DNA of 61,510 bases, filler included, from Jimgerdemannia flammicorona (lineage: Eukaryota): NCBI GenBank assembly GCA_003990765.1. It is 3 parts of 3 records of this genome, joined end to end, with 100 filler letters (N's around TTAATTAATTAA, not from the genome) between each part and the next. Parts side by side here need not be neighbours in the genome. Positions count along the whole stretch, not along the records: positions 20,540 to 40,977 come from RBNJ01001685.1; 2 more parts are not named here. One strand, 5' to 3'. Each line of letters opens with the position of its first letter. Position 1 is the first letter of the stretch. A program made the translations under genes and the position numbers. Positions 20,440-44,599 of this stretch are shown here, piece after piece. The notes below the pieces were generated by a model. It had not been told where the DNA came from and made no database searches. It worked only from the letters and a program-made list of their open reading frames with translations.

Positions 20440-20539
20440 NNNNNNNNNNNNNNNNNNNNNNNNNNNNNNNNNNNNNNNNNNNNTTAATTAATTAANNNNN
20501 NNNNNNNNNNNNNNNNNNNNNNNNNNNNNNNNNNNNNNN
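20440..20539. other. Assembly gap with artificial TTAATTAATTAA spacer
   Basis: N-run, ttaattaattaa (stops in all six frames), N-run. Confidence 0.95.
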
Positions 20540-20579: not shown

Positions 20580-21240
20580 TCTTTAATATACACTATATTA
20601 GAAATAGCTAATTAATAGTCTGGTAATATAAGTAGTAATATAAATATATCAATTATGAGTATTCTTATAGATATAACCTTAACAGATATAAGAAATATAG
20701 TCTTAGTTATAAGTATAAATATAACCAAGAGGTCTATCCTGATTTTTGATAGAAAAGATTATACTATTTAGATATTTTAATATTAAATCTCTTTGATAAA
20801 TATAGCTTAGCAAACTATATAAAGCTATAAGTACTAATTCAAAATTATAATACTATAAATAATTACTATATATTATTTAAGATTATATTTACATTCTTGA
20901 ATTTATAATTAAAGCTTATAATATATGCTATAATAGCTCATAAGATATAAAAAAACTCTATATAATTATCATCTATTAGTATCTGTATCAAATTGATTCT
21001 ATCTAAAATCTTAGCTATTTCATCTATAAATAAAGTCTAAGGAAAACATCTGTAAATATATCAGTTATATTGATGATCTAGTATATTAAGTAAATTCTCT
21101 TAGTATGTCTATAAATTATATTAGTAATAAAGAAAGAGTTATAGGACCTATAAGAGAACTTTCAGATATATATAATATTGTTATTATAGCTATATATTAG
21201 AGTAACATACTCATGAACTATATCTATATATAAAATATAT
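20580..21240. repeat. Degenerate AT-rich dispersed repeat (probable DNA-transposon relic); inverted copy at ~43840-44520
   Basis: gatagaaaagattatactatttag (~20748) vs reverse complement of ctaaatagtatagtcttttctatt (~44310). Confidence 0.5.
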
Positions 21241-21449: not shown

Positions 21450-21478
21450 TTAGGGTTAGGGTTAGGATTAGAGTTAGG
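21450..21478 (+). repeat. Telomeric TTAGGG tract (5 units, partly decayed) forming an element tail
   Basis: ttagggttagggttaggattagagttagg followed by cttcaagtaa. Confidence 0.9.
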
Positions 21479-23643
21479 CTTCAAGTAATAGTTTATTCAT
21501 TGTAGAAAGGATAAGATACATTGGTACAATAAATGATAAAGCCACTAAAAATAAGAAAAGAAATGACAATTTGTCCTACAAGACAGGAGTAAGATAAAAA
21601 ATAGAAAGAGATCAGTAAAGCAAATAACTAACTAAGAAGAAATAATAAGATCAGAGATATAACCACCCAAGGGATGGGCTGGAAAACCCCATTTTTTTTA
21701 GCTATAAAGGAGATTAAAATGTACAAAAGTAGAAATAAAAAAGCTAAATAAAATATATATATACTTAGACTAACAATAAGAACTTGATATCTATAACTAA
21801 ATATCAAACAACTAATATAAAGAGCAGACCTTAGAGGCAACTTCTCCACTAACATTCACATCATACAAACTTCAAAACATACTTTTGAATTATTTATTAG
21901 AGAAAGCTACTAAGGATATAGTAACTACCAAGTGAGCCAATATGTATACTGGATTAAGTGAACTTAGGACCTTCAACTGGCAATATGTCAGAAGAAGGTA
22001 TGGATTGGGGATGGGGTCTTTTGGTGGCCCAAGTGGGCAGGGCAGTTTAGGCAGTGATGGTGGTACTAGCAGAGGAGCAAGAGGGCAGGGGGAGAGAAAT
22101 TTTGTATATATACTAAAGGCTGATAGATGACCTACTAGATCTCATAGTGATTAGACAGAAGAGAAGAAAAAGTAAAGAGAGTGGAGACAGAGAGTTCGGC
22201 ATCTTGACTGATAGATGGAAGAGCTAGTAGTGAAGTTGCTGGGAGTAGAGGGGGACTACTGATGGGGACATAACTGTAGATTGGGAAAAAAATCCAGATA
22301 TGATAGTAGATAGAGAGACTAGACCATTGAGACGAAAGCAGATGAGAGACCTGGCTGATAGTGTGATGAGGCTAGTGGTGGCACCATTACTCAAGAAGTC
22401 TATATCAGAGTTTGCTATAACCTTGTACTTCCAGAGTTTGGTAGTAATGGCTAGAATAGTTTTGGAGCTTATCTTTAAGCAGGTGGCTGAAACTGCCTTA
22501 GTGAGATTTCTGAAGAGACTGGAGGGAGTTGAGGTAGAATTTGAGGAGGTGGGCCCTCTGGAGAAAGCATTGAAGACAGGAGTAGCAGTAGGGGAGATAG
22601 TGGTCTCTAGGGTGTATTACTTAAGATGGGATCCCAGGGTAGTTCAGCTTTTAGTGAAGGGAGTACCTACAGTGATGACAGCTGAGACCAGGAGGAGGGT
22701 TGAGGAGGTGATGGTAGAGTATAGTGACATAGTTAATATTGAATTTCAGATATAAGAGAGGACTATTCCCAGAACTAGAGATGTGGATATCAGGATCTGG
22801 TTTACTAGGAAAGAGGTCACTGGGAAGATAAGTGACTGGTCTTTTGTCATACTGTAGAGAGCCATCATCTGTAAGGTATCAAGAGTGAAGAGGAGAGAGG
22901 AGGAGGAGAAAGATCTACTAGAGGTATTGAAGGAGTAGAGTAGAGCAGTTGAGAGAAGGACAAAGGCCTGAAGATACATGTAGAGGTAACACACTTAGAG
23001 ATTGTTGAAGGGAAGCATATTCAAGTTGATAAGAAAATGTGGGAGAGGTTCCAGGGCCATAAGTTGCAGAGGGAGTTATTGGTGAAGCTAGGGAATAAGG
23101 CATCAATATCTGCTAGAGATAGTGAGGATACTGAGGGAGCCAAGGTGAGTATCTGGGCTGGTAGAAATAGTGAGATGGAAGGGGGGGGTCAAGAGGAGGC
23201 CAGGAAGGTACCTAGCAGTAATCTATAAGGATGATATATTGGAAGTCTGGAAGGAAGTCTGTGAGAATTCTCTCACTCCTCTTATCAGAAAGAGACCAGC
23301 AGCAAGGAGACAAGGAGCAGTAGATGTGTCAATATATAGAGTCTAGTGAGTACGATTTAGAGTTCTTAAGATAGAGAAGAGGGACAGGTAGTGGCTATAG
23401 ACAAGGAGAAATTGGTGGATGTCTCTGAGAAAGGATAGGATAAGACTACAAGCATGGGGGCTAATATGACAATGCTAGATGGGGGTCAACCAGCAATACC
23501 TGGGGGATAGAAGGTAGGGAACTGGCTTTGGATGTGTTAGATGATAAATAACTTTACAGTGAGGAGTTGAGAGAGATGGACCTGAGGGTGATGAGTGATA
23601 AGCAATACTATATAGTGATGGAGTAGTGAAGGCATTGAAGGCA

Positions 23644-24612
23644 TGGGCTTCTTTCTCCGCTACCTTACTGGTCACAAGGTTTGGTAGGCGACCTTCTGAG
23701 TCTCCTTTCCCCTATTATTACCCCCTCTACCTTGGGTTGGTTTGCTGTGCCTACAGGGGCATGGTGGGAGGAGGGCTATGGTGATGAGTTGCCCCTTTAT
23801 CGGTGTCGGATCGGTGCTTCCTCCACTTTTTCATAGATTCTGGTACCTTCGGCTACGTCTGGGGTATACCCGTTTTGATGCGGCGCCTTCTTCCTTTTGC
23901 CATCGCCAATAAGGGGTTGTCTCAGTGTGTCTCGGGCTACATAGGGAGTTGGCCGACCTTGGGCGTCAAGTGCTCAGTGTAGGTTACCTGCAGGTCTTCG
24001 GTGCTTGTAGTGGGGCCCTCTGGCTTTGGAAAGCTTCCCGGCGAGCATGGTTCTGGCGTAGGTGACTGTTTTTTGGGTGTTGTCGGGATGGGAGGGGAGA
24101 TGGCCATTACAGATAGGAGGATGGGCGATTATGGTGAACCAGTGGGGTGCCAGGCTGGGGGCGGTCGTCGGGGCTGGGGCAGGTGCTGCTTTGATGGGGC
24201 CTTTTGATTGGTGTGGTGTGGTTAGGTGGTAGGTGTCACTATCGGCTTCTTTTGGTGGTTAGCGGGGTTGGGCCCCAGTCGTCAGGGGGGGTCAGGAGGC
24301 CTGAGGCTACCCATTTCAGGTGTCTTGGCTGCACTCAACTGGAACCGGGAGCTGATACGGCAACATGATCGAGGCCCGCAGGCTTGAGTAGTGGGGTATT
24401 GGGGGTTTCCCCTGGTGTTAGGGAGAGCATAGTGTGCAGAATGAGGTGCGGGCATATAACAGCCCTGCTGCTCCTGCCATGGTTGAGCTGCTGGACAATA
24501 GCTAGCCTAGGTTAATGGGGGGGCAGTGCTTGGTGGGTGGTGGGGGAGGGTTTTGGCCTATATAGTCTAGGTTTCCTTCCAATAAAATTCTGCAGGACAT
24601 GCGTCCATTAAA

Positions 24613-24645
<33 letters not shown>
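23644..24645 (+). mobile_element. ~1 kb non-autonomous poly(A) retroposon (SINE-like), complete with TSD
   Basis: 15-bp TSD aaggcattgaaggca at 23629-23643 and 24644-24658; AATAAA at 24581; A tail 24614-24645; no credible ORF. Confidence 0.85.
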
Positions 24646-24650
<5 letters not shown>

Positions 24651-24949
24651 TGAAGGCAGAAGTACTTGCAGTTTTCCTGGAGAAGAAGGGATATGAGGTT
24701 GATAAGAAGAGAAAGGCTGAGTTAGCAATGGTGGTAGAGGAGTGGGCAGCCTACTGTTGGATAGAGCATTATGGTCTACAGCTCTGGTAGGATGCTTGTC
24801 AGAAGTATTATAAGAATTTTGAGGAGAAAAAGGAGAGAGAACTAAATGAGCTTCTGGGGGAATTAGAGGCAAAGAGAATTGAGGAGGAGAAGCAGGCTGC
24901 AGAATATATCTTGGACTTAGCACAAGAGCATATAGAGGTGAAGTAGTAG

Positions 24950-27050
24950 AGAAAGTGTTGGGACTTTTCATCTAAACATTTTTCCCAATGAACAGTACAA
25001 TCAAAAATTTTTCTCTTAATGTAAATAGACTACAAGGTTCAGAGCAATATAAGAACATTTTTACTTAGCTTTAAGGATTAGAGACTGATCTCTTCTTGCT
25101 GTAGGATATATGGTATAAAGATGAGATAGATCAAGTAAAGTGAACTAGAGAATAGAGAGGTACTATAGCTTGGATTGGTAAAGCAGCAATTTTGGTACAG
25201 AATGATAAGGGAGATCTAGGGTGAATCAGGAATTGGGAAGACTGCTTAATATGGGGAAAATGGTATAGACTTTGGTGGGGGTTACTGAGAGTAGGCTCTT
25301 GCTACTACCTAGTAGTCAGAGATAAGAGAATTATATAGATTAAGGAGCTCTTAGAGGAGGGTACATTCTTGGAGGATGGGGTAGATATTCTGGATAATAA
25401 CTTTAATATAGTGTGAAACCCTCAGTTAGATAGAACTGATAGAAAGAGAAGTGCTGGTAATAGAAGTGATGGCCTCTTAACTCCTCTCTGCTGACTAAGA
25501 AGAAGTTATAGGACCTATGGGTGGAGGACATCTAGGGAACGATTGCAAGCTGGAGATAGGAGAGTGTAATAGTAGGTATTTGGTAGATAAGGTTGAAAGA
25601 AGCTGTAAGGGAATACTGGGGGAGAGCTGGAAGAGATACTGAGAGGGAGAAAAGGAAAAAGGTGAGGTGTACTTTGTAGAGAAGAGGGTGGCTATCTAGA
25701 GTGAGATTCTTAGAAGTTAAGGAGGTTGCTATATCTCTCTAGCAGGCAGAGTATTGATTTTGAATACCTACTGATTTTCTAAGCTATAGTATATTGCATA
25801 TCACTTGGACTTCTCAGCTTGGGTGGTGAAGAGGATGATAAAGCTAGCTAGGGATTGGATTTGAACTAGGAAGCAGTCACATATCAGTTGCGATATCCTA
25901 TTATTATCAGTGGTTAGAGAAGGTCTAGGACTGGTGGATCTTCCTAAGAGGCCCAATAGCCTGAGAGCTTGGTGGCTGAAGCAGGTCACTGAATTGTAGG
26001 GAGTAGAATAGGTTCTACTGATACAGAAGATATAGAAGATAAGATTCTCCTCAAGAGGGTCTACAGGAGACTTACTATTGCTGGTAGGTCAGGGTGGGAG
26101 CTGTCAGTAGATATAAAAGCTTCTAATAGAGGATAGTAGATAAAGCTCATCATATTGACTTATACTGGTATAGTAATGAAGGAGAGATATATACTATAGG
26201 GACTAGCAATATAGCAATAGGACAGACTGCTTTTGTGAGGTCCTCTATTGGCTGAGTTTGACATTGATGATAGAGTAGAGTATCAGAGGATACTAAGTCA
26301 GGATATCTGGACTGCTAGTTGGCAAGCAGTAGGGATTGGGAAGGAGTTGGACTGGGCAGGAGTCTGATCATAGAGTATTTGAATGAGGAGGTAGCTGCCT
26401 TCTAAGTTCTGGGTAGTATAGTAGAGGATGCTATAGAGGAATATCATATTGAATTTCCACACTGAGTATCTGGTGGATGGGGGGCAACTGGATAGCAAGG
26501 AGTGTTACAATATTAGACAAATTGAGAGATTTGTATAGATACCAGAACATTGGTTAAGAGAGTATAAAGTTCTGAGAGACTTTTGGTTAGCCTAGGTAAA
26601 TAGATGTGGGTTAAGAGGACACCAGAAGGAGAGAGAGTTCAATAGGAAGATTTGAGAACTAGGTTAGTGGGAGATGTAGGCAATGAATGGTCTACTGTTG
26701 AGTGGGTTTTGGTTATATGGATAGGGCTGGCTAGATATTGACTCTTTGTTTTTGAGAAGAGCCAATAATTAGTTCTGCAAGAGAAGTTGTTAAAATAGGA
26801 GGGATTGTTGGGAGACTTATTGACAGGACAATGGGTCAGTTGGGATTCCCAGGGTGAATACTATCACTAACTAGTTTTAGGAATCTATAAATAGAGTGGT
26901 GAGCAGATTGTAATAGTTAATGATCTAGTGGTCTTTAATTATAAAAAAGTAGTAATAGAGAAGGCCCCCTAGGGGGATTGGATAGGGGCAGGCTCAATGT
27001 ATTTATATTGGATAGATGGGTGTATTAATAAAGGAAGAAGTCTAAGAGAC

Positions 27051-27090
<40 letters not shown>
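24950..27090 (+). mobile_element. L1/Tx1-like LINE relic, apparently internally deleted
   Basis: ORF2 start MNSTIKNFSLNVNRL (APE motif SLNVNGL) at 24988, EGLGLVDL at ~25920, decayed C-terminal Cys region ~26450-26600, AATAAA and poly(A) at 27055-27090; RT core not recognisable. Confidence 0.6.
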
Positions 27091-27091
<1 letters not shown>

Positions 27092-29190
27092 CAATCAATA
27101 CAAAATAAATAATTCAATATACTCTCAATAATAAAAGAAAACAACCTTTCTCCAGTAATATTCAGGTAACTCAAACTTCAGACAATACTTCCAACAATAT
27201 TTTGATAAAAAGGTTCTAATATTATAGTGAGTAACAAGCTTTCAGAAAATCATACAGTACAGGTCAGCTCTAGGACCTTTGACTGGCAGTATGTAGAGTA
27301 GAGACAAGGTGCAGGCTTTGGGATGCCTAGTGTCTCTCTGAGGGAGAGAGGGGCTGAAGTTGATAGAAGAGGTGGAATGAGATAGTAGAGAAATAGACAG
27401 TTGACCTTTACTAATAAGGTCAAGATGAGAGCTCAGACAAAGAGACTGAAGAGATAGCTAGACCTGAAGAAGGAGAAAGCAGCTACTGGAAAGAAGAAGG
27501 GAGGTCCTCTGGTGTGCCAGTATAGTAGGACAGATAGTGTAGTAGCTAGGGGAGTGACTAATGATAGAAGTATGATAGGCAATCTGGAAAAAAATCTAAA
27601 TAGTCTGACAGATGATATAATGGACCTGGTAGTGGCTCTATTGCCCCAGAGGTCAAACTCAAAGTTCACAGCTATCTTGTGCTTTTGGAGCTTAGAAGTA
27701 ATAGCAAAAATAGTTCTAGGAAGCAGGTGAGTAGAGCAGTATCCATGAAGTTTCTGAAGGGATTGGAAGGAGAGGAAGTGGGCTTTGAAGAGGCAGGGAT
27801 ATTAGAGAATATATTGTAGACTAGGCTGACTGTTGAAGAGGTATATGTTTTAATTGTGTACTGCTTGAGATTAGACCCCAGGGTGGTACAATTGTTGATA
27901 AAAGTGGTACTCATGATAATAGCTATGGATATAAGGAGGAGAGTCAAGGAAGTCATGGCTAAGTTTAGAGAGAAAGTAGATATTGAGTTTCAGATCCAGG
28001 AAGGGATCTTATTCAAAAGTGGAGATATTTATGTCTGGATTCAGTTAGTAGAGAAGAAAGCTACCAAAAAGGCTATAGATTAGCCTTGGGAAATGAGGGT
28101 AAAGGGGAGTAAAGAAGAGGAGGAGAATTTACTAGAGATACTGGAGGAGCTGAGTGGAGTAGTATAGTAGAGAGTGAAGGCTTGAAAAATATATATAGAG
28201 TCAATATATTTGGAAGTAGTAGATGGAAAGTAGATCCACATAGACAAGAGGTAGGGAGAAAGGTCTTAAGGATATAAGAGGTAGAGAGAGCTGCTGACAA
28301 AGCTAGAGAGTAGAGTAAAGAAGAATACTGATGAAACTGAAAATATAGGGAATATCAAAGTGAGTGTCTGAGCTGGTGAAGTAGGAGAGAATATAGAGAA
28401 GGAGAAGTGACCAAAGAGGTAGCTAGCAATGATCTGTATATAGATAGTATATTTGGAATCTAGAAGGACACCTCTCACCTTATTAGATAGCCTTGAGGAG
28501 CCAGGTTGAGGAGAATATACCTATGTATGGGGCTCAGCAGGTATACTTTGGAGTTTCAGAGATAGCAAAAGAGTGATAGATAATAGTAGCTAGTAAAGAT
28601 GAACTAGTAGATATCCCAGAGGAGGAGTGAGATTTAGATATAGAAAGGCTGGCTACTCTGGGAAGAAAGGATATGGGAAACTCACTATGGATTTGCTAGA
28701 TAATGAATAACTTTATAGCTAAAGAGTTGAGAGAAGAAGACCTAAGAGTGATGAGTGATGAATATTGGTCATAGATTTTGTATAGCAATAGAGTAGTGGA
28801 GGTACTGAAAGAGATACTGTAATTTTTCTAGAAGAGAAAGAGTATAAGATTGATAAGAAGAGAGAGACTGAGTTAGTAGCTGTAGCTAGTGAGCAGGCCA
28901 CCTTCTGTTGGGCAGAGCATCATAGCTACCAACACTGGGGAGGCAGGAGACCAAAGGAATGGTGGCGGAGGCACTGGGGGCATTTGGTGAGATGGTTGAC
29001 TGATTAAAGCTTTAACAGGAGGCCTGTTTAGAGTATTATAAGAACTTTAAGAAAAAGAAGAATAGTGAACTTACTGATCTATTAGTTAGATTGGAGAATA
29101 AGAGGCTTAAAGAGAAGGAGGTGAATATTGAATATAATCTGAACTTAGTATAGGAGATGATGAATATAGAGCAATAGAGGATATGCTTGA
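27091..29190 (-). mobile_element. RT-less telomeric partner element, copy B (extreme 3' end lost at the L1 insertion)
   Basis: Collinear with 21840-24800 (TTLGSNLKQYTIKT); 27109-27133 aataattcaatatactctcaataata matches the LINE 3' UTR aataattcaatgcgctctcaacaacg (~30573). Confidence 0.65.
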
Positions 29191-30253
29191 TACGAGCTCC
29201 ATTCTCCTCTACCTTACCAGTCACAAGGTTTGGTAGGTGACCTTCCGAGTCCCCTTTCCCCTATTATTACCCCCTCTACCTCAGGTTGGTTTGCTGTGCC
29301 TGCAGGGGCATGGTGGGAGGAGGGCAATGGTGATGAGTTGCCCCTTTATCAGTGCCGGATCGGTGTCTTCTCTACTTTTTCGTAGTTTCTGGTGTCTTCG
29401 GCTGCATCTGGAGTGTATCCGTTTTGGTGCAGCACCTTCTTCCTTTTGCTGTTGCCAACAAGGTGCTGTCTCGGTGTATCTCAGGCTACATAGGGAGTCG
29501 GCCGACCTTGGGCATCAAGTGCTCAGTGTAGGTTACCTGCAGGTCCTCGGTGCCTATAGTGGGGCCCTCTGGCTTTGGCGAGCTTCCCGGCGAGTGTGGT
29601 TCTGGCGTAGGTGACTGTTTTTTGGGTGATGTCAGGTTGGGAGGGGAGATGGCTATCACAGATAGGTGGAAAGGCAATTACGGTGAACCAGTGGGGTGCC
29701 AGGCTGGGAGCGGTCATTGGGGCTCGGGCGGACAATATTTCGGTGGGGCCTTTCAATTGGCTGGTGGAGGGTGGGGTGGTGCAGAGGCCGGCGTTCTGGC
29801 TGTACCCAACTGGAACCGGGAGCTGATGCGGCAACGTGATCAAGGCCTGCAGGCTTGGGGAGTGGGGTCTTCCTCATTTGGCAGTACCCAACTGGAACCG
29901 GGAGCTGACATGGTAACATGATCAAGGCCCGCAGGTTCGGGGAGTGGGAGTGGGGTCTCTTTAGGCCCTAGTCCATGTATAAGTCCTTTGAGGAAGGTGC
30001 TGCATATACGTCCTTTACTCACCCGCTTTGAATCTACTTTGCTCTCTGTTGGTTGGTTGGGGGGTTTTTTCTTTGCCTCGGGCTTTCTTTTGGGGTTCGG
30101 GGGGCTATTCTTTATTCAGTCCCAGTGCTGCTAGATCTGACGCGTAGGTGTGCTCTCGCGTGTAAACGATGATCCAGCCCTAGTGAGCAGACAAGTCTAG
30201 TCTATATCGTGGGGGTCGACATAGCCGGTATTTGACAGGCATAGCTGGAGCGG
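29190..30253 (+). mobile_element. Third copy of the ~1 kb retroposon family (divergent 3' half, cut off by a telomeric tail)
   Basis: 29209-29760 is highly similar to 23660-24210; internal repeats caactggaaccgggagctga. Confidence 0.75.
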
Positions 30254-30661
30254 TAGGGTTAGGGTTAGGCTTCAAGTAAGAATTTATTCATTGTAGAGAA
30301 GACAAGTGACATCGGAGCAACAAAAGACAAAGACTCCTAAGATGAGAAAAGCAAAACAAGACCAGCGAAGTAAACAACTAGCTATAAAGTACAAACAAGG
30401 GCCAGGGAGGTGACCACCCTATGGACGGGCTGGATAAAACCATTTTGTCATGGCCGTAGGGATAATGAATGCAAAAAGCAGAGAAAAGAAAGACTAAAGT
30501 ATAATACACATTCGCCCGGCGCCTACTACAAGAACAATCGTCAACCAAACACCAAACGACTGACATGAAATGAATAATTCAATGCGCTCTCAACAACGGT
30601 GGGAACCAACCAGGGTGAATGAGGGGAAAGAAAGAAATAAAGAAAATATGCAATCGCTCGA

Positions 30662-33600
30662 TCACCCAAGCATCTTCGTAATCTCGGTTAGGTAGAACCC
30701 GACCGCGAGGTGGCCACCAGAATTACACATTGCGTCGATAGCATGGTAGGCTGTCTCGTGAAGAGCGTGAAGAGGGTAGGCGCGAAGTTCCTCCTGCCAT
30801 TCGTCACTGGTAAACCAGTCGAGCTGTTCATCTTGATCTGAAGAACCTCAGAAAGCAGAATACGAACTGTCGAGAAGACCGCACCTGAGGAGATGGCCAC
30901 GATGAAACTTATCTCCACAGGGGCAGGGGCGGGGTTGGCCAAAATAGCCATAGCGCCAGGCGAGGGCAGAACACACAAGCCGGGGGGGGAAGGAGAGGAT
31001 GCGATCAGTGCCCCACGACCATAAATGGCCTTTGGGGGTAATGTACCGAATGAGAGTCTGGGAGGAGGAGGCCCATTCCTGCAACAGCTGATCCCGGAGG
31101 AAGGACTGGAGGAAGGAGCGGAGCGAGCGAGTCTTGCGGACCTGGGGACGGAGGTCTCAGTACCAGTCGAGGAAGTCAAGCCAGGAGGTCCAACGCCGGA
31201 ATTTGTCAATAATAGAACCCGGGGGACGCGTGACAAAGCGCTCGCTAAGAGGGCCGATGGGGTTGTTGCCCGACTTGCTACACCAATCCAGGTGGGCTTG
31301 GAACATGCAGCAGAGGTCAGACGTACGACGAAGGAAGGAAGGGAGGCCGAGAATCGAACTGCCGAGCAAGGGACGGCCAGAAAATCCAACCTCCCAGGTG
31401 ACAGCGTCATCAAAGACCTGCTTGGGACGCTTCAACGCCTGAAGCCCCGTGGTAGTAGCTGGACAGGAAGCTCGTAGAAGGGGGAGGCCATACTCCAGCT
31501 GAGGCCTGATGAAAGTTTGTACGATGGCCAGCTTGACCATTGGTGACCAGAGGGGACTACGGGCACGGCAGAACCCAAGAGTTCGTTCCGCCTTCGCCGC
31601 ATTCTGTAACGCCAGGTTGACAAAGTCAAACCCTTTGTTGGTGTACGGCATGCCCAGGTACACGTAGGAGGTGGGTTGCAGGCAGGGTTCGCCCCCAATC
31701 AGCACAGTACAGTCAGCAGGGCCAACATAACTACACTTCTTGGGATTGAGCTCCATACCGTTCACCCGGAGCCAATCTTCGCAGAAATCAACCATCCTTT
31801 GCCCTTCCGCGGCAGTGCGGGGGGTGAGGGCGATATCATCAGTAAAGAAGAGCCCGAGGGGAAAGTTGTACTCCTTGAACTGCTCATCAAAGGAGGCGGC
31901 AAGGGGATCGATAAAGACATCAAAGAGCTAGGGGGAGAGGAGGGAGCCCTGGAAAAGGCTGCACTCAGTGGGGACCGAAGGGGTGACGAGGCCATTAACA
32001 ACCACCTGGTAGAAACAGTGGTTAAACAGGCTTCGGATAATACTAAGGAGGGCCGCATCGGCACCTCACGCCTCAAGGCGGGAAAGAATGCGCTTGAGGG
32101 GGACTCAATCGTAAGTCTGCCAGAGGTCCAAGAAGACATAGTGGCCCCATCCCTTAGCCCACGTCTCGTGTTATAACAGGACATGAGAAAGGGACGAGAA
32201 GTGGGTTCGGAAGCCGCCTTGGCAGCGCGACATTTCTGTCAGGCCACTTCGGCTCTTGACGTATCCTTCCAAACACTGCTCGAAGAGTCTACGAAACATT
32301 TCAGTCAGAGCAATAGGGCGAAATCCATCGATCGTATGCGATTCCTCCTTCTTGGGGACCAGGGTGATGATGGCTGAGTTCTAGTGGCGAGGAGTGAGCC
32401 CCCAGACCACACACATCTGGAAGAAGAACGAGAGGGCTTTCGAAAGGCTACAGGGGGCGTCCTTCTCACCCGCCATCATCTGAAGGATCCGGACGTGCAA
32501 GGAGTTGGCACCACATGCCTTAGAGAGGGGGTAGCTGCAGACAGCACTCCAAACCGCAGGTTGGTCAAACCAAGACTGCAGCCCAAGAGCGCCCACGCCA
32601 AGTGGGAAGACATCTTCAGAGTCATCGAGACGAAGGGAGGCATCTGGCTGGCTGAAGATAGTGGTAAAGTGAGCAACCACGTCATCGAATACAGGGACAT
32701 TGAGGGAGCGAGACTGAAGGGGTGCGGAGGGGGTGGAGCGATACGCTCGCTTAAAACCACAGATGGCATCGGAGACCGAAGATGCACTGCGGAGGAGGTC
32801 ATGCCTAGGGAGCAGCGCTGCTCTGATTTCTCTTGTATCATACGAGCCAAGAATGTCCTCACAGACAGACTGCAGACCAGAGGTCAAAAGAGCATCAAGG
32901 GAATCCACAAACTGCTGGCGATCATCCACAGAGCGAAAGCCAGCGATATGGTCCCTAACAGAGTAGATAGACTTGATAACGGTATCGCAAATAATATCCG
33001 CTGATTCCCGAAGGTGAGCTTGAATGATCGGGTCAGTCAGGTATCTCGCAGAGTAACAACGGACGCCAGCCAAGGCAGCAACTGGCGAGGGGGAGAAGGG
33101 GAAGGAGACAGTGAGGAGGGAGGGGAGATCGGTAGCGACAGGAGGAGTGGAGCAGGTGAGGGACGTGTGGAGGGACGTGGTGGTGAATGCGTGGTCAACG
33201 AGTGTGGATCCAGCCACTGGGGTCAGGTGGTTCAACAACCACGTCATCAAGGAGGTGTCGACGACATCCATCCGATCGCGAGGACCAGAGTTGACGTCAC
33301 CAAGGCGGGCACCGAAATGGGTATTGATGTCACCGATCAAGAGGGCCTTACCCGGGAAGGGTCCAGACACTAGATCACGGAAACCACCAATGGGAAGAGA
33401 GGGGGGGGCGTAAACCCCAACCAAAGCCAGGCCCTGGAACATGAGCCGGATATGGAAGGGGTCGGCAGAGGACTCGGAAATGAGGGGGGCGAAACGGTTT
33501 GACACAAGGACCACGAGACCACCATTCTGGTGACCCACGATTCTGTGCGACGCCGGAGGGGAGGACATGTGAATGAGCGGAGAGGGATGCAGTGGGATGT

Positions 33601-33709
33601 GCCACGTTTCACATACGAAAATAACATCGAGGGCAGGACCAATCAACCGACTGAGCACATCGAACTTGTCCTGGGGTAGTCCGTGTGCATTGAGGAATCC
33701 GACTCTCAT
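30662..33709 (-). pseudogene. LINE copy 1 ORF2: APE endonuclease + reverse transcriptase + C-terminal CCHC-like motif (~1015 codons, a few stops/frameshifts)
   Basis: MRVGFLNAHGL, FVCETW, GDIN, VDHAF (APE); QGGFR, QGSLLSP, FTDD (FADD in copy 2), LNPKKC, YVYLGM, FIRPQLEYG (RT); CPCGDKFHRGHLLRC. Confidence 0.92.
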
Positions 33710-35204
33710 TGGGGGCTAGGTGCGTTAGCGCCAACAGCGTGGGAAGCACCTGAGGCAGAAGCTTCAGCTTCCAAATCCATCGCCATGTCACCCATCACAG
33801 CCACAGTACCACCTGCCTTCAAAGCAGGGCCGGCCATCGGGGAGGCGAAGGAGGGGAGGGTGAGGCCGAGTTCTGCGGCACATGCTCTGTAGAAGGTCTG
33901 TACCTCAGGCCTCTTCGTAGTGGCTTCGCCTGTCAACTACCGGACCTGAGCATGGAATGATTGGAGAACCTATGTCTTCACGGCCTCCGTGGCGTTCTTG
34001 TTGTGTGGGAGTATAGGGTCCTAGGCCGACAGCACCGAGAACCCAAGCGCCTTCATCTTCTTTTGGAACGCCGTGACATAATCAGGGCAGAGAAGAAATT
34101 CGATGGTCGATGCCGAAACATACAACATGTTGAGGACCTTTGACAACATCACATGGACATCATACAAGTTCTTCCGGATTTGCCCGATCTTCAGATGGGC
34201 GAATCCGTCAATGTAGACGTGCTGCAGCCTAGCGCCCTTCTCAGTCGGCAACAAATGAGAGGTCGGCTTGCGGGTTATGCGTGAAAGGGCGGTGGCAGCA
34301 GCTGCCCTTTCCATCTTGGGGTAGGCCTGGGTCCTATCTTTGATAGAGACCTTCTTGGCGGCGGCGGCGTACGATTTGGGGGGGGCGGGGGTCGAAGCGG
34401 GGGATGAAGACGGACCGGCGGCACTGGGTCCCACAGGCGTAGCCTGGGGCACTGGCCCGGGAGCCTTGGCCTTGTCCTTTTTAGGGGGCGCAGCTTTAGC
34501 AGCCGGAGGTGCAGCCGTGGGAGTTACCTCCTTTGGCAGCGCACCAGACTGCGACGCAGCGGCTTTAGCGGCCCGCTTATCTACTCGCTTCTGGGCCTTC
34601 GACCGCGTGTTCGCGGCAGGACCAGTAGGAGGGGGGGCCGAGGACTTGGGGGGGGCAGGTGTGGATGGGGCAATGGGGGTACTTCCCGAAGGAGCACCAG
34701 ATGTTGAGGGGGCGGTGGGCGCATGATGCGCAGCAAGCTGCGCCATCAGCTGGGCGTTGATCTTGGCCAGATCGGCTACTTGAGTCAGAAGATCTGAGAT
34801 CTGCTTCCTTATCATGGCCATCTCTATGACCAGATCGGGTTCGGCTGAGGGGCCTGCACGATTGGCCGTTGGGGTCATTCCCAAACTAGTGTTCAGGCGA
34901 CCACGCTTGTTCTGGTTGAGGGGCGGGGGTGTGGGAGAATAGTTGATGTGCTGGGTATCGTGGTCCGAATCGGAAGAGATCGCAATCTCTTCGTCATCTT
35001 CCGCGTCGCACAGAGAAGATAAATATGCCGATATCGGTCGTGCATCCCGCACGACCTGCACATCACCATAAGGCTACCCTCGCCGAAGCCAAGGGAAAGG
35101 AGACCGATGCCGTGACATTCAGCGCAGCGGAGCGAGGTGCCGAAGCGCGCGAAAAGTTGGGTGGCGTTGCCGTCATCGCCGACGACGGAGGAGGTGGCCG
35201 ACAT
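33706..35204 (-). pseudogene. LINE copy 1 ORF1 (gag-like; CxxC..CxxC, coiled coil, Pro/Ala linker, C-terminal domain)
   Basis: ORF pieces 34893-35204, 34021-35061 and 33706-33936 join after one 1-bp frameshift and nonsense changes; the stop overlaps the ORF2 start (ATGA). Confidence 0.8.
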
Positions 35205-35821
35205 TGCCGAAATAGGCAGAGGTGTGTTTGTTTGTTTTTTTGAAATTGAGAAACATGGGTCACATGACCTTTGTTTGTATAACGAAAAAATAATGTTTAA
35301 GGGGGGTATTTATATCTGATGAGAGGCTTAGCTAATCAAAGTGACTGCTTTCTTAATTTGGAATAGCTTCGGGCCGTAAAGCCGAGTCTAACCAAATGGG
35401 GAAATCACATGAGTGGTTAGGGTTAGGCTTCAAGTAAGGATTTATTCATTGTAGAGAAGACAAGGTACATCGGAGTAACAAAAGACAAAGACTCCTAAGA
35501 TGAGAAAAGCAAAACAAGGCCAGCGGAGCAACAGCTAGCTAGGAAGTACAAAACAAAGGCCAAAGAGGTGACCACCCTATGGACGGGCTGGATAAAACCA
35601 TTTTGTCACAGCCGTAGAGATAATAAATGCAAAAAGCAAAGAAAAGAAGGGCTAAGATATAATATACATTCGCCCAGCACCAACTACAGGAACTGTATCG
35701 ACAACTAAAACACCAAACGACTGACAGGAAATGAATAATTCAATGCGCTCTCAACAACGGGAGAACCAACCAGAGCGAATGAGGGGAAAGAAAGAAGTAA
35801 AGAAAATGTGCGATCGCTTGA

Positions 35822-38800
35822 TCACCCAAGCATCTTCGTAATCTCGGTCAGGCAGAACCCAACCGCGAGGTGGCCACCAGAATTATACATGGTGTCTATG
35901 GTGTGGTAGGCGGTTTCGTGAAGAGCGTGAAGAGGGTAGGCACGAAGTTCCTCCTGCCATTCGTCACCGGTAAACTAGTTGAGCTATTCTTCTCAATCTA
36001 GAGAACCTCGGAAAGCAGAATACGAACCGTCGAGAAGACCGCACCTGAGGAGATGGTCATGATGAAACTTATCTCCACAGGGGCAGGGGCGGGGTTGGCC
36101 AAAATAGCCATAATGCCAAGCGAGAGCACAACGCACAAGCCGGGGGGGGAAGGAGAGGACACGGTCGGCTCCTCATGACCGCAAGCAGCCTTTGGAGGTG
36201 ATGTACCGAACGAGAGCCTGGGAAGAGGAGGCCCATTCCTGCAGCAGCTGATCCTGAAGGAAGGACTGAAGGAAGGAGCGGAGCGAGCAAGTCTTGCGGA
36301 CCTGGGGACGGAGGTCCCAGTACCAGTCGAGGAAGTCAAGCCAAGAGGTCCAACGCCGGAACTTGTCAATGATAGAACCCGGGGGACGCGTGACAAAGTG
36401 CTCGCTAAGGGGACTGATGGGGTTGTTGCCCGACTTGCTACACCAATCCAGATGGGCTTGGAACATGCAGCAGAGTTCAGACATACGACGAAGGAAGGTA
36501 GGGAGGCCAAGAATCGAACTGCCAAGCAAGGGCCGGCCAGAAAATCCAACTGCCCAAGCGACAGCATCATCAAAGACCTGCTTGGGACGCTTCAACACCT
36601 GAAGCCCCGTGGTAGTAGCCAGATAGGAAGCACGTAGAAGGGGAAGGCCATATTCCAGCTGAGGCCTGATGAACATTTGTACGATGGCCAACTTGACCAT
36701 TGGCGACCAGAGGGGACCACGGGCGCGGCAGAAACCAAGAGTACGTTCCGCCTTCGCCGCATTCTACAACGCTAGGTTGACAAAGTCAAACCCTTTGTTG
36801 GTGTACGGCATGCCCAGGTACACATAGGAGGTGGGTCGCAGGCAGGGTTCGCCCCCAATCAGCACAGTACAGTCGGCTGGGCCAACATAACTACACTTCT
36901 TGGGATTGAGCTCCATACCATTCGCCCGAAGCCAATCTTCACAAAAATCGACCATCCTTTGCCCTTCCGCGGCAGTGCGGGGGTAAGGGCGATGTCATCG
37001 GCAAAGAAAAGCCCGAGGGGAAGTCGTACTCCTTGAACTGATCATCAAAGGAGGTGGCGAGAGGATCGATAAAGACATCAAACAGCCAAGGGGAGAGGAG
37101 AGAGCCCTGAAAGAGGCCATGCTCAGTGGGGACCGAAGGGGTGACGAGGCTATTAACAACCACCTGATAAGAACAGTGGTTGAACAAGCTTCGAATAATG
37201 CTAAGGAGGGCCACATCGGCACCTTGCGCCTCAAGGCGAGAAAGAATGCACTTGAGGGGGACTCGGTCGTACACCTGCCGGAGGTCCAAAAAGACACGGC
37301 GGCCCCATCCTTTAGCCCACGTCTCGTGCGAAAGCAAGACATGAGATAGGAATGAGAAGCGGGTTCGGAAGCCACCTTGGCAGCGCGACATTTCTGTCAG
37401 GCCACTTCGGCTCTTGACATATCCTTCCAAACACCGCTCGAAGAGTCTACGAAACATTTCAGTCAGAGATAGGGCGAAATCCATCGATCGTATGCGATTC
37501 CTCCTTCTTGGGGACCGGGGTGATGATGGCTGAGTTCCAGCGGTGGGGAGTGAGCCCCCAGATCATGCACATCTGGAAGTAGAATGAGAGGGCTTTCGAA
37601 AGGCTACAAGGGGCATCCTTCTCACCCGCCATCACCCGAAGGATCCAGACATGCAAGGAGTCAGCACCACACGCCTTTGAGAGGGGGTAGCTGCGGATAG
37701 CTCTCCAAACTACAGGCTGGTCAAACCAAGACTGCAGCCCAAGAGCTCCCATGCCAAGGGGGAAGACGTCCTCAGAGTCATCGAGACGGAGGGAGGCGTT
37801 CGGCTGCCCGAAGATAGTGGTAAAGTGAACAACCACATCATCGAACACCGGGACGTTGGGGGAGCGAGATTGGAGGGGGGCGGAGGGGGTGGAGTGATAT
37901 GCTCGCTTGAAACCACGAATGGCATCAGAGACTGAAGATGCACTGCGAAGGAGGTCCCGCCTAGGAAGCGGCGCTGCCCTGATTTCTCTTGCATCATACG
38001 AGCCAAGAATGTCCTCGCAGACTGACTGTAGACCAGAGGTCAAAAGGGCGTCAAGGGAATCTACAAACTGCTGGCGATCTTCCATGGAGCGAAAGCTGGC
38101 AATGTGGTCCCTGACAGAGTAGATGGACCTAATAACGGTATCGCAGATGATATCTGCTGATTCCCGAAGGTGGGCTTGGACGACCGAGTCGGTCAGGTAT
38201 CTCGCAGAGTAATGACGGACACCTGCCAAGGCAGCAACCGGCGAGGGAGAGAAGGGAAAGGAGATGGTAAGGAGGGAGGGGTAGTCGGTAGCGACAGGAG
38301 GGGTGGAGCAGGTGAGGGACGCATGGAGGGACGCGGTGGCGAATGCATGATCAACGTGTGTAGATCCAGCCACCGGGGTCAGGTGGTTCAATGACCACGT
38401 CATCAGGGAGGTGTCAATGACATCCATCCGGTCGCGAGGACCAGAGTTGACGTCACCAAGATGGGCACTGAAGCGGGTATTGATGTCACCGATCAAAAGG
38501 GCCTTACCCGGGAAGGGTCCAGACACCAGATCACGGAAGCCACCAATGGGAAGAGAGGGGGGGGCGTAAACCCCAACCAAAGCCAAGCACTGGAATATGA
38601 GCCACATATGGAAGGGGTTGGCAGAGGACCCGGAAACAAGGGGGGCGAAACGGTTTGACACAAGAACCACAAGACCACCATTCTGGTGACCCACGATTCT
38701 GTGCGATGCTGGGGAGAGGACATGTGAACGAGCGGAGAGGGACGCAGCGGAATGTGCCACGTTTCACATACGAAAAGAACGTCGAGGGCAGGACCAATCA

Positions 38801-38864
38801 ACTGACTGAGCACATTGAACTTGTCCTGAATTAGTCCGTGTGCATTGAGGAACCCAACTCTCAT
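35822..38864 (-). pseudogene. LINE copy 2 ORF2 (APE-RT, frameshifted)
   Basis: Same motifs as copy 1, including FRPIS, QGGFR, FLDLRQVYDRV, QGSLLSP and FADD. Confidence 0.9.
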
Positions 38865-40298
38865 TGTGGGCCGGGTGCGTTAGCACCACCAGCGTGAGAA
38901 GCACCTGAGGCAGAAGCTTCAGCTTCCAAATTCATCGCCATATCGCCCGTCATGGCCACAGTACCACCCACCTTCGAAGCAGGGCTGGCCAATGGGGGGG
39001 CGAGGGAGGGAAGGGTGAGGCCGAGTTCCGCGGCCCATGCCTTGTAGAAGGTCTGCACCTCAGGCCTCTTCGCAGTGGCTTCGCCTGCCAACTGCCGGAC
39101 CCGAGCATGGAAGGATTGGAGTACCGGTGTTTTCACGGCCTCTATGGCATTCTTGTTGCGTGGGAGGGCAGGGTCCCAGGCCGAAAGCACTGAGAACCCG
39201 AGTGCCTTCATCTTCTTTTGGAATGCCGTGACATAATCAGGGCAGAGCAGGAATTCGATGGTCGACGCCGAGACGTACGACATGTTGAGAACTTTTGACA
39301 ACATCATATGGACGTCGTACAAGTTCTTCTGGATCTGCCTGATCTTAAGATGGGCAAATCCATCGATGTAAACGCGCTGCAGCCTAGCACCCTTCTCAGT
39401 CGGCGACAAATGAGAGGTCGGCTTGCGAGTCATGCGCGAGAGGGCGGCTGCGGCAGCAGCCCTTTTTGTCTCAGGGTATGTCTGGGTCCTATCTTTGATA
39501 GAAACCTTCTTGGCGGCGGTGGGTCCTGCAGGCGTAACCTGGGGCACTGGTCCAGGGCCTTAGCTTCGCCCTTTTTAGGGGGCGCGGCTTTGGCGGCCGG
39601 GGGTACAGCTGTGGGAGTTGCCTCCTTTGGCGGTGCACCAGACTGCGACGCGGTGACTTTAGCAGCCCGCTTATCCGCTCGCTTCTGGGCCTTCGACCAC
39701 GTGTTCGCGGCAGGACCAGTAGGAGGGGGGGCCGAGGACTTGGGGGGGGCGGATGTGGAAGGGGCGGCGGGGGTACCTCCCAAGGAGGTACTATACAGCA
39801 ATGAAGTCGGGGCGGCTGACCTTTCGGCAAGCTGTGCCATGAGTTGGGCGTTGATCTTGGCCAGTTCGGCCACTTGAGTTAGCAGATCCGAGATCTGCTT
39901 CCTCATCGCGGCCATCTCCGTGACCAAATCGGGGTCGGCTGAGGGGCCCGCATGACTGGCCATCGGGGTCATTCCCAAACTAGTGTTCGGGCGACCACGC
40001 TTGTTCCGATTGAGGGGCGGGGGCGTGGGAGAGTAATTTTAGCGCTGGGTGTCGTGGTCTGAATCAGACGAGATCGCAATCTCTTCGTCATCTTCCGCAT
40101 CGTGCAGGGAAGATAAATATGCCGATATTGGTCGTACATCCCCGCACGACTGCACATCGCCATAAGGCTACCCTTGCCGAAGCTGAGGGAGAGGAGACCG
40201 ATGCCGCGACATTTGGCGCAGCGGAGCGAGGCACTGAAGCGCACGAAGAGATAGATGGCAGTGCCGTCATTGCTGATGACGGAGGAGGAGGCCGACAT
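38861..40298 (-). pseudogene. LINE copy 2 ORF1 (frameshifted)
   Basis: MSASSSVIS...RCAKCRG; RKQISDLLTQVAELAKINAQL; RLQRVYIDGFAHLK; ATGA overlap with ORF2. Confidence 0.8.
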
Positions 40299-40350
40299 TG
40301 CCGAAATAGGCGGAGGTAGGTTTGTTTCTTTGGTTGAAATTGTGAAACGC

Positions 40351-40364
40351 GGGTCACGTGACCC
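40351..40364. promoter_or_regulatory. Perfect palindrome GGGTCACGTGACCC (E-box/Cbf1-type site) in the LINE 5' UTR; TATAAATA ~35 nt upstream on the - strand
   Basis: Seen directly; copy 1 has the CpG-decayed version gggtcacatgacct at ~35257. Confidence 0.45.
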
Positions 40365-40501
40365 TTGTTTGTGCAACGAAAAAATAATGGGAAGGGGTAT
40401 TTATACCCGATGAGAGGCTTAGCTAATGAAAGTGACTGCTTTCTTAATTTGAAATAGTTTCGGGCCGTTAAGCCGAGTCTAGCCAAATGGGGAAATCACA
40501 T

Positions 40502-40977
40502 GTTAGGGTTAGGGTTAGGCTTCAAGTAAGGATTTATTCATTGTAGAGAAGAAAAGATACATCGGAGCAACAAACGGCGAAGACTCCTAAGATGAGAAAA
40601 GCAAAACAAGGCCAGCGAAGTAAACAACTAGCTAAGAAGTACAAAAACAAAGGCCAGAGAGGTGACCACCCTTTGGACGGGCTGGATAAACCATTTTGTC
40701 ACGGCCGTAAAGATAATAAATGCAAAAAGCAGAGAAGAGAGAAACTAAGAGAAAATACACAAACGCCCGGCACCAACTACAGGAACCGTATCGACAACTA
40801 ATCACCAAATGACTAACATGAGATGAATAACTCAATGCACTCTCAACAATGGGGGAACCAACCAAGGCGAATGAGGGGAAAGAAAGAAATAAAGAAAATG
40901 TGCGATCACTCGATCACCCAAGCATCTTCGTAATCTCGGTCAGGCAGAACCCGACCGCGAGGTGGCCACCAGAATTA
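40502..40977 (-). mobile_element. 3' end of telomere-tailed LINE copy 3 (cut by gap)
   Basis: Tail GTTAGGGTTAGGGTTAGG at 40502-40519, 3' UTR, and ORF2 end (EITKMLG*) at ~40914. Confidence 0.9.
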
Positions 40978-41077
40978 NNNNNNNNNNNNNNNNNNNNNNN
41001 NNNNNNNNNNNNNNNNNNNNNTTAATTAATTAANNNNNNNNNNNNNNNNNNNNNNNNNNNNNNNNNNNNNNNNNNNN
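40978..41077. other. Assembly gap with artificial TTAATTAATTAA spacer
   Basis: N-run, spacer, N-run. Confidence 0.95.
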
Positions 41078-43836: not shown

Positions 43837-44599
43837 TTATATAGATATAGTTTATAAGTCTACTGTTCTCATATATAGCAGTTACTATAATATTATATAT
43901 TTCTGAAAGTTCTTTTATAAGTATTAGAATCTTATTCTTATCTCTAATATAATCTATAAATATGCTGAGAGAATTCACTTAATTTATCAGATTGTTGATA
44001 TAATTAGTATACTTATAGATACTCTTCTTATTATTAGATTTTATTTATAGATTAAATAACTGAGATTTTAGATGGAATCAATTTGATATAGATATTTATA
44101 TATAATAATTATATAGAGCTTCTCATATCTTATAAACTATCATTATATATACATATATATTATAAGTTTTATTTACTAATTTAAAAGAATGAAGACAATC
44201 TCTTATAATACTCAACAGTTGTTTGCAGTATTATAGTTTTAAATTTGTACTTGCAGTATATATACTCTACTAAGTCATACTTATTAAAGAGATTCATCAT
44301 ATAGAAAACCTAAATAGTATAGTCTTTTCTATTGAAGATTAGAATAGATCTCTTGATTATATTTGTATAAAGACTATATTTCTTATTATATATAATATCT
44401 ATACTGATTACAATAGAGACTATTTCTATTATTACTAAAATACTCATATATTTGTTAAATTACTAAGCTTATCTTAGCTTATTATAGAGTTTATTTATAA
44501 TATATATGTATATATATTATAATGATATTTTTGAAACTGATAATATCAGAACCCAAAGACTACTTAGACATAGCAAGTCACCAGTTACAAGTTATGACT

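Follow-up and report, generated by a model that had tools for sequence, protein, structure and literature searches.

Retroelements aimed at telomeres stand at the heart of the debate over how telomerase, Penelope-like elements and long interspersed nuclear elements (LINEs) relate to one another, and they also bear on the question of how transposons serve or destabilise chromosome ends. Here we describe a head-to-tail array of LINEs found in a 61,510-base stretch of DNA (hereafter the window, meaning this whole stretch), which encode an endonuclease of the apurinic/apyrimidinic type (APE) and whose copies end in short C-strand telomere repeats (CCCTAA) rather than in poly(A). Several telomere-associated elements known from animals can be compared with it. 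HeT-A, TART and TAHRE of Drosophila, which belong to the Jockey clade and reside in a host without telomerase, form head-to-tail terminal arrays with their 5' ends distal; they are joined through poly(A), with no telomerase repeats in between. TRAS1 and SART1 of Bombyx mori, members of the R1 clade, are likewise APE-type LINEs with two open reading frames (ORFs), which lie in telomere repeats in a fixed orientation. The polarity of TRAS is the same as that of the window element, i.e. the sense strand is continuous with the C-strand, and the ORF1 stop and ORF2 start of SART1 overlap as UAAUG, where the window element has ATGA. The hosts of TRAS1 and SART1 are insects with TTAGG repeats. According to the available portions of the papers cited here and below, SART1 requires three TTAGG units, and its accurate initiation depends on a long poly(A) tail (PMC7265360), whereas poly(A) is present at none of the 14 scored 3' ends of the family described here (4 in the window and 10 in related loci). 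Among APE LINEs, target specificity is reported for the R1 and Tx1 clades, and the target-specific elements of the Tx1 clade encode an APE-type nuclease (PMC4640811). One of them, Tx1-1_ACar of the green anole, is cited as a telomere-specific LINE (PMC10088271); judging by that citation, from which the likeness is drawn, it would likewise be an APE element aimed at TTAGGG repeats.

In fungi, two kinds of such elements are present in the literature that we searched: the endonuclease-less Coprina, and MoTeR/FoTeR with a restriction-like endonuclease (REL). MoTeR of Pyricularia and FoTeR of Fusarium oxysporum are non-LTR (long terminal repeat) retrotransposons which share with the window element both the 3' telomere repeats and the lack of poly(A). 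The 3' ends of FoTeR carry 3-7 TAACCC units, and MoTeR and FoTeR are described as elements without poly(A), located at chromosome ends, which leave behind 5'-truncated relics without target-site duplications (PMC12857005, PMC8381367). Together with Cnl1, they encode a C-terminal REL (CCHC...RHD/N...E...R/KPD) and are placed in the CRE clade with SLACS (PMC12857005), in contrast to the window element, whose nuclease is N-terminal and has the APE fold. A 5' telomere-like motif of the MoTeR/FoTeR type is found only in two relatives of the window element (L005 and L007) and not in the window. Athena and Coprina bear a few host telomere repeats at the 3' end, and these are believed to prime reverse transcription by pairing with the G-overhang; both keep one orientation relative to the chromosome end, occur in ascomycetes and are described as having no endonuclease, and the telomere-limited elements of Zymoseptoria and Ascochyta were assigned to endonuclease-less Penelope-like elements (PMC13159263, PMC4522978). 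The reverse transcriptase of Athena and Coprina is of the TERT-like Penelope type, whereas the window element combines an APE nuclease with an L1-like reverse transcriptase. In the available part of a 2023 survey, MoTeR1 is the only fungal telomeric retrotransposon listed (PMC10088271).

A preliminary description of the array had named most of these elements as analogues, and the papers uphold what it said about the REL of MoTeR, the lack of endonuclease in Coprina/Athena and the poly(A) of SART1, but it missed the anole Tx1 element. We found no APE LINE with a telomere-repeat tail in the open literature searched, Repbase Reports, Dfam and subscription journals lying outside that search. The family is large and apparently unnamed; as it comprises at least 150 clusters in public data, some of its members might have been deposited before with no more than a generic name. 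What is apparently new in this element is that an APE nuclease, as in insect TRAS/SART, occurs together with a templated tail of telomere repeats, the kind of tail carried by Coprina and MoTeR.

The window consists of three contigs joined by artificial linkers (N...TTAATTAATTAA...N, at 20440-20539 and 40978-41077), and adjacency across these linkers has no meaning. The array lies on the minus strand of the middle contig (20540-40977) and is composed of two full copies of about 5.1 kb and one cut 3' part, all head to tail. Read along the sense strand, it opens with copy 3 (40977->40520), of which only the last 458 nt are present because it is cut by the contig end. This is followed by tail 3 (CCTAACCCTAACCCTAA, 40503-40519; TTAGGGTTAGGGTTAGG on the plus strand), the full-length copy 2 (5075 nt, 40502->35428), tail 2 (CCTAACCCTAACC, 35415-35427; GGTTAGGGTTAGG on the plus strand), three extra bases, ACT, at 35412-35414, the full-length copy 1 (5142 nt, 35411->30270) and tail 1 (CCTAACCCTAACCCTA, 30254-30269; TAGGGTTAGGGTTAGG on the plus strand). 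Tail 1 joins copy 1 to unrelated DNA, namely a truncated copy of another repeat, and the two bases next to it (30252-30253) could also be telomeric. Copy 1 has a 5' untranslated region (UTR) of about 207 nt, a finger ORF, ORF1, ORF2 and a 3' UTR of about 390 nt; copy 2 is 89% identical to it, and both begin with CATGTGATTTCCCC.

Every copy in the array has the same 3' end, AATAAA-N13-CCTAACCCTAA (in copy 1, AATAAA thus lies 13 nt ahead of the tail), and the 5' end of the next copy comes directly after the tail. On the plus strand, each array tail is followed by CTTCAAGTAAG/ATTTATT, the complement of AATAAAT(T/C)CTTACTTGAAG, and the neighbouring 5' ends read ...CACATG; the one at tail 3 abuts directly, and at copy 1 the three extra bases lie in between. 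A fourth copy was found via purine/pyrimidine collapse; it is a strongly mutated relic in which the final ~400 nt of a 3' UTR are left, and its tail (CCTAACTCTAATCCTAACCCTAACCCTAA, 21450-21478, minus strand) consists of five units, two of them with transitions. Tails 1, 2 and 3 and that of the relic are 16, 13, 17 and 29 nt long, respectively. The sequence CTTGAAGCCTAACYCTAA occurs four times in the window, always on the minus strand (21468-21485, 30259-30276, 35417-35434 and 40509-40526), with 0 occurrences expected from 100 shuffles, and CCTAACCCTAA occurs six times, every time within one of the four tails (0.04 expected). In other words, telomere-like 11-mers in these 61.5 kb are confined to the four tails, which share one orientation and set in immediately past one and the same terminal base of the element.

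At the four window junctions that we inspected, neither an A or T run nor a target-site duplication is visible; this is usual for site-specific LINEs and does not speak against an APE-type LINE. The preliminary description had spoken of three co-oriented copies ending in AATAAA and a telomere tail, of tails joined to the 5' ends of neighbouring copies, and of the lack of poly(A) and of ordinary target-site duplications. All of this holds for the window, with all copies on the minus strand and tails joined to 5' ends at 35415-35427 and 40503-40519; what we add is the relic, the three extra bases at copy 1 and the finding that the end coordinate given there, 40977, is that of a contig. Copies 1 and 2 differ by 580 mismatches in 5066 aligned columns and by several indels, which indicates that they are separate decayed copies and not an assembly duplicate; transitions account for 490 of the 580 mismatches, mostly in CpG context. 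Each copy has one G-quadruplex motif on the antisense strand and none on the sense strand, which is no striking enrichment.

ORF2 of copy 1 (30665-33709, minus strand) runs over 1015 codons in one frame with seven in-frame stops. It has an APE endonuclease at about residues 1-205, a reverse transcriptase domain (RVT_1) at residues 451-687 and a CCHC motif (CX1-2CX7HX3C) near residue 930, which is followed by about 70 residues. When ORF2 was read through, with X at the stops, Pfam detected RVT_1 (E 1.5e-20) and nothing besides it, i.e. neither a match to the EEP models nor RNase H, and the individual broken ORFs gave no Pfam match. A profile made of ORF2 and eight relatives was nevertheless aligned with residues 10-774 of human L1 ORF2p (E 4.9e-50), an alignment that covers the L1 endonuclease motifs N..E..Y..GDxN..D(H)..(S)DH; against R2, the family profile gave about 1e-34. 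An AlphaFold2 model of residues 1-240, based on a 15-sequence alignment, has a mean pLDDT (predicted local distance difference test) of 85. In Foldseek, its best match was the R1Bm endonuclease (E 4e-10), a likeness of the predicted fold only, and the L1 endonuclease and human APE1 (about 1e-9 to 1e-10) as well as ExoA were also matched. The residues of the L1 catalytic set, N7, E34, Y100, D127, N129, D172 and H173, are invariant in all 15 family sequences, while H195 is present in 14 of them, with the window sequence as the exception; within the family, the nuclease thus seems to be constrained. As had been proposed at the outset, the element is an APE-type non-LTR retrotransposon; it has two ORFs, and its window copies are decayed and dead: in addition to the stops in copy 1, ORF2 of copy 2 is split into four tblastn pieces by frameshifts and has five stops in the last piece. 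A REL family of the MoTeR/FoTeR type was also considered and rejected, on account of the N-terminal APE-fold nuclease and because the ~70 residues after the CCHC motif contain no REL motifs (RHD/N...E...R/KPD).

A word-indexed protein search gave 12 relatives at ~30% identity, on contigs of 2.5-11 kb, and a profile search added 19 more. When 1.84 billion cluster representatives were searched with a profile, at least 150 proteins were matched, most of them over the full length. The weakest of those listed scored 570 bits, as compared with 58-167 bits for the lower-scoring matches of the earlier profile search, most of which have Pfam-detectable APE domains. By this count of sequence matches, the family would comprise at least 150 clusters at 50% identity. 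Of 20 representatives looked up, most lie on contigs of about 3-7 kb. A protein of Artemia was dismissed as a family member, its match being a generic reverse transcriptase match in six stretches. A scan of genome contigs revealed no relative. A scan of metagenome contigs from JGI, on the other hand, yielded 18 loci with 24-33% identity to the window element (42% for one fragment), and in 13 of these 18 loci the ORF2 frame is open, without a stop, over about 870-1160 codons.

The 3' module of the window element recurs at these loci. An exact (CCCTAA)2 run lies on the sense strand downstream of ORF2 in nine of the 18, and neither an exact G-strand run nor an A or T run of at least 10 is present in any. 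If up to one mismatch is allowed, L009 gains a 3' tail, L005 and L011 gain a site at the 5' side, and a single G-strand site appears, in L014. The loci devoid of a tail mostly end before the ORF2 stop or just past it. At all 14 scored sites, AATAAA (ATTAAA in L009) is found 6-22 nt upstream of the tail, a strikingly conserved arrangement; the length of the 3' UTR varies from 23 to 819 nt. The tail of L003 (3395-3425), CCTAAACCCTAA, is a substring of a TTTAGGG-type repeat, which fits co-variation of the tail with the host telomere if the host repeat is indeed of that type. When 45 ORF2 proteins, all of them unnamed sequences, were placed in a quick maximum-likelihood tree, the window copy and all 13 loci included fell into one 24-row clade with a Shimodaira-Hasegawa-like approximate likelihood ratio test (SH-aLRT) support of 99%. 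The tail-bearing loci are spread over five separate sub-branches of this clade, and the tail is therefore an old character of the family.

Traces of tandem arrangement are not limited to the window. L011 begins with AATAAAGCTCGTTAAT, then CCTAACCCT, then a 5' region, i.e. a 3' end, a tail and a 5' end in this order. In L017, 415 nt beginning 238 nt past the tail are 95% identical to the first 415 nt of the locus itself, and in L003 a 5'-truncated copy comes after the tail. The orientation of the tails is fixed; the telomere tracts are only 11-29 nt long, and no contig contains a long telomere array. In L018 (4177-4317), three telomere units abut an exon-like reading frame, which we take to be that of succinyl-CoA ligase alpha, with GT after a conserved GRRMG; from its sequence, this junction might have arisen when a broken chromosome was healed or through insertion into an intron. 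Two further features were noticed in L007. Its 5' region (1-240) contains a 118-bp tandem duplication with CCTAACCCTAA in each unit. Downstream of its tail (5340-5804), internal repeats extend over ~400 nt and close with ATTAAA + N9 + CCTAACCCTAA, and this block may be a short non-autonomous partner sharing the tail.

Given these data, it is likely that the window contains an array of an APE LINE whose transcript carries CCCUAA repeats after the poly(A) signal, in the place of the poly(A) or microsatellite tail of other LINEs, and that 3' ends of the TTAGGG-bearing G-strand prime its cDNA; the family probably copies itself onto telomere DNA. The polarity assumed in the preliminary description follows directly from the sequence, and the relatives, with no exact G-strand site among 18 loci, agree with it. 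As the sense strand is continuous with the C-strand, the cDNA is continuous with TTAGGG, which argues that a G-strand 3'-OH primed each copy. For the same reason, the 3' ends should point toward the chromosome interior and the 5' ends toward the tip, which is expected beyond 40977. Whereas the anatomy, the domains, the tails with their orientation and the deep conservation of the 3' module can be read from the data, we infer how the cDNA is primed, what the APE nick and AAUAAA contribute, and that the array is located at a telomere. According to this model, a bicistronic RNA would be translated, with ORF2 starting at the ATGA stop/start overlap. The conserved AATAAA just before the repeats suggests that the RNA is cleaved within the first of them, and this would leave a ...CCUAA(CCCUAA)n end, with or without poly(A), able to pair with the G-strand; as poly(A) is never copied, initiation would have to occur in the repeats. 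The RNA-protein particle would then meet TTAGGG DNA, either as an APE-nicked G-strand of duplex repeats or as a free G-strand end, and the short tracts behind older copies might also be duplex targets for the APE nick. A G-strand 3'-OH would pair with CCCUAA near the 3' end of the RNA and be extended by the reverse transcriptase, and over repeated rounds, arrays would build up in which 11-17 nt of telomere repeat lie between the copies. The invariance of the APE residues speaks for a cycle that includes the nicking of duplex TTAGGG. Since intact relatives exist, the site of the RNA end, APE cutting of a TTAGGG duplex and priming by a free G-strand are all directly testable. Arrays of this kind create interstitial telomere tracts, and such tracts are described, in the available text, as drivers of chromosome-end instability in Pyricularia (PMC8381367).

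A number of observations do not favour this model. Both full copies in the window carry stops or frameshifts, both have lost the last catalytic His (replaced by L in copy 1 and by Y in copy 2), and copy 3 is cut by the end of the contig. At 11-17 nt, the tracts that separate the copies are far below telomere length and could be wholly RNA-templated, for example through template jumping, and TATAAATA, located ~100 nt inward from the 5' end of the element, does not fit a simple model in which a promoter acts at +1. Moreover, the tails of L001, L002, L014 and L018 consist of two or three repeats and are followed by unrelated DNA, and at the 3' end of L011 itself, unrelated DNA comes after CCTA alone; these loci thus do not bear out strict telomere specificity. 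The short tails (2-5 units), their unrelated flanks, among them the exon-like one of L018, and the CCTA end would all be in line with an ordinary dispersed LINE, whose CCCTAA microsatellite tail is made by the reverse transcriptase without any aim at telomeres, and whose arrays arise by insertion into tails or by unequal crossing-over; a conserved APE domain would also permit insertion anywhere. We nevertheless regard such an origin as unlikely, since the canonical telomere unit is found in every lineage scored, always as the C-strand in the sense orientation, no target-site duplication is visible at the window junctions, and each 5' end preceded by a tract (two in the window and one in L011) has the 3' end of another copy directly before that tract. 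Furthermore, both non-element flanks that we have seen are truncations and not split targets. As far as their sequence tells, the flanks of tail 1 and of L018 look like broken ends which were given telomere repeats and then the element; instead of a healed break, either of them may represent an insertion whose other flank lies outside the contig. The preliminary description had considered that other copies might mostly have poly(A) tails or non-telomeric junctions. Poly(A) does not occur in this way, with no A or T run of at least 10 in 18 relative loci; as to the junctions, in the four loci named above unrelated DNA comes after the telomere repeats.

It might also be assumed that the element is added to free chromosome ends only, its APE nuclease having no targeting role, and that the arrays are formed by serial end addition or by template jumps of the reverse transcriptase. 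Addition of this kind was proposed for endonuclease-less Penelope-like elements and was seen for L1 at uncapped telomeres; it would account for head-to-tail arrays with the 5' end distal, for the three extra bases at 35412-35414, which are expected of non-templated addition at a template jump, and for the truncated flanks, which fit healed breaks. The invariance of the APE catalytic residues across a very deep family argues, in turn, that nicking matters for the spread of the element, and we therefore find an exclusive use of free ends rather improbable, even though the bioinformatic data cannot separate free-end addition or template jumping from the nick-primed model. In a short, repeat-rich contig which ends inside a copy, one might suspect faulty assembly, or tandem duplication of what was a single insertion. 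This is highly improbable, as the copies are set apart by indels and by differences at 580 of 5066 positions, the tail lengths are different, one junction has extra bases, and the same architecture is found in unrelated metagenome contigs. Finally, 3' telomere repeats, a fixed orientation and two ORFs are also features of some Coprina/Athena-type endonuclease-deficient Penelope-like elements, at least in the available parts of the relevant papers (PMC13159263, PMC4522978). Membership in that group has practically no probability here: it is refuted by the APE-fold nuclease with which ORF2 opens, ORF2 is aligned end to end with residues 10-774 of L1 ORF2p, and neither a hammerhead ribozyme nor any other Rfam family was detected in the window at the gathering score.

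A broader version of the nick-primed model is possible, although we consider it doubtful. The family might be an ancient, eukaryote-wide clade of telomere-specialised APE LINEs, with a CCCUAA RNA end cut under the direction of AAUAAA, which would nick duplex repeats and also heal free ends without telomerase, and whose tail would track the host repeat. It would then be the third independent fungal invention of telomere-repeat priming by retroelements, after Coprina and MoTeR/FoTeR. If this were true, the clade would form a natural link from LINEs that depend on a nick to an extension of ends in the manner of telomerase.

ORF1 of copy 1 (33706-34878, minus strand; 390 codons, three in-frame stops) has a region rich in Pro and Ala and a coiled-coil-like stretch, its C-terminal domain is conserved, and copy 2 has a 60-nt deletion in this ORF. 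No Pfam family was found in ORF1 of the window or of 11 relatives. The model of the C-terminal domain (pLDDT 81) has a beta-alpha-beta-beta-alpha-beta core. VIA-align returned mostly RRM domains for it, at a borderline Z of ~8, and Foldseek returned nothing at E <= 0.001; the predicted fold may thus be described as RRM-like, on a borderline score. Upstream of ORF1 lies the finger ORF (34893-35204, minus strand; 103 codons) with a Cys-rich finger-like motif, CxxC...C...C. In the relatives this motif forms the N-terminus of ORF1, and in both window copies it is in a separate, shifted frame. The ORF1 stop and the ORF2 start overlap as ATGA in both window copies (the stop of copy 1 being TGA) as well as in L001, L002, L005, L007 and L010; L013 has TAATG, and in L014 and L011 the two codons abut or nearly overlap. 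An overlap or near-overlap is thus present in 10 of the 13 sequences checked, which suggests translational coupling. The 5' UTR was inspected at 35200-35411 in copy 1 and at 40290-40502 in copy 2. A palindrome, GGTCACGTGACC, is located at about +150; it is mutated to CATGTG in copy 1. As CACGTG is also present in the 5' regions of L005, L007 and L009, it may be a conserved promoter element.

The relic copy differs from the others in its state of decay. The first part of its 3' UTR (21479-21822, minus strand) is 78% identical to copy 1, or 85-92% after purine/pyrimidine collapse, and the second part (27091-27150, minus strand) matches 30556-30611. The relic stops at 27150 and is thus 5'-truncated; no ORF2 remnant was found by tblastn beyond this position. 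At 21822 it is interrupted by a 5.27-kb poly(A)-tailed insertion (21823-27090), which ends in a run of 37 A (27054-27090) and is flanked by diverged direct repeats of ~13 bp. Ordinary poly(A) retroposition therefore leaves different scars in this genome than those seen at the array junctions. A second run, of 36 A at 24610-24645, suggests two poly(A)-tailed retroelements on the plus strand, nested or in tandem; no protein domain was identified in 21823-27090.

The DNA to the left of tail 1 belongs to another repeat family, ~87% identical copies of which lie at 23517-24400 and 28676-29948. In the latter, 82 bp are duplicated in tandem (29797-29948), and at 30253 the telomere tract brings this copy to an end. 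One soil-metagenome DNA run contained 0.05 of the sampled words, together with diverged copies of both the element and the flank repeat; no RNA sequencing run was listed among the runs with the element's sampled words. A contig from soil metagenome matches the flank repeat up to 30254 and then continues with other sequence, so that tail 1 sits at a truncation point of the flank repeat. Of the 30 bins into which the element was divided, 29 are covered by the 83 contigs from the soil run, which are mostly less than 90% alike, and none of these contigs bridges a tail.

The remaining part of the window is repeat DNA, composed of AT-rich blocks with a GC content of 22-30% and Gypsy-type fragments. 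The AT-rich blocks, the transition-dominated decay and the TTAGGG repeat point to a host that is probably fungal. The Gypsy-type LTR fragments, with aspartyl protease, dUTPase and reverse transcriptase/RNase H, are located in the first contig (6450-9048 and 17582-18043). The GC skew is +0.35 to +0.40 over 22001-30000, as compared with +0.10 to +0.15 in the LINE copies. The second and third contigs also share a repeat family, seen as an inverted repeat pair of 75% identity at 20688-21230 and 43838-44386.

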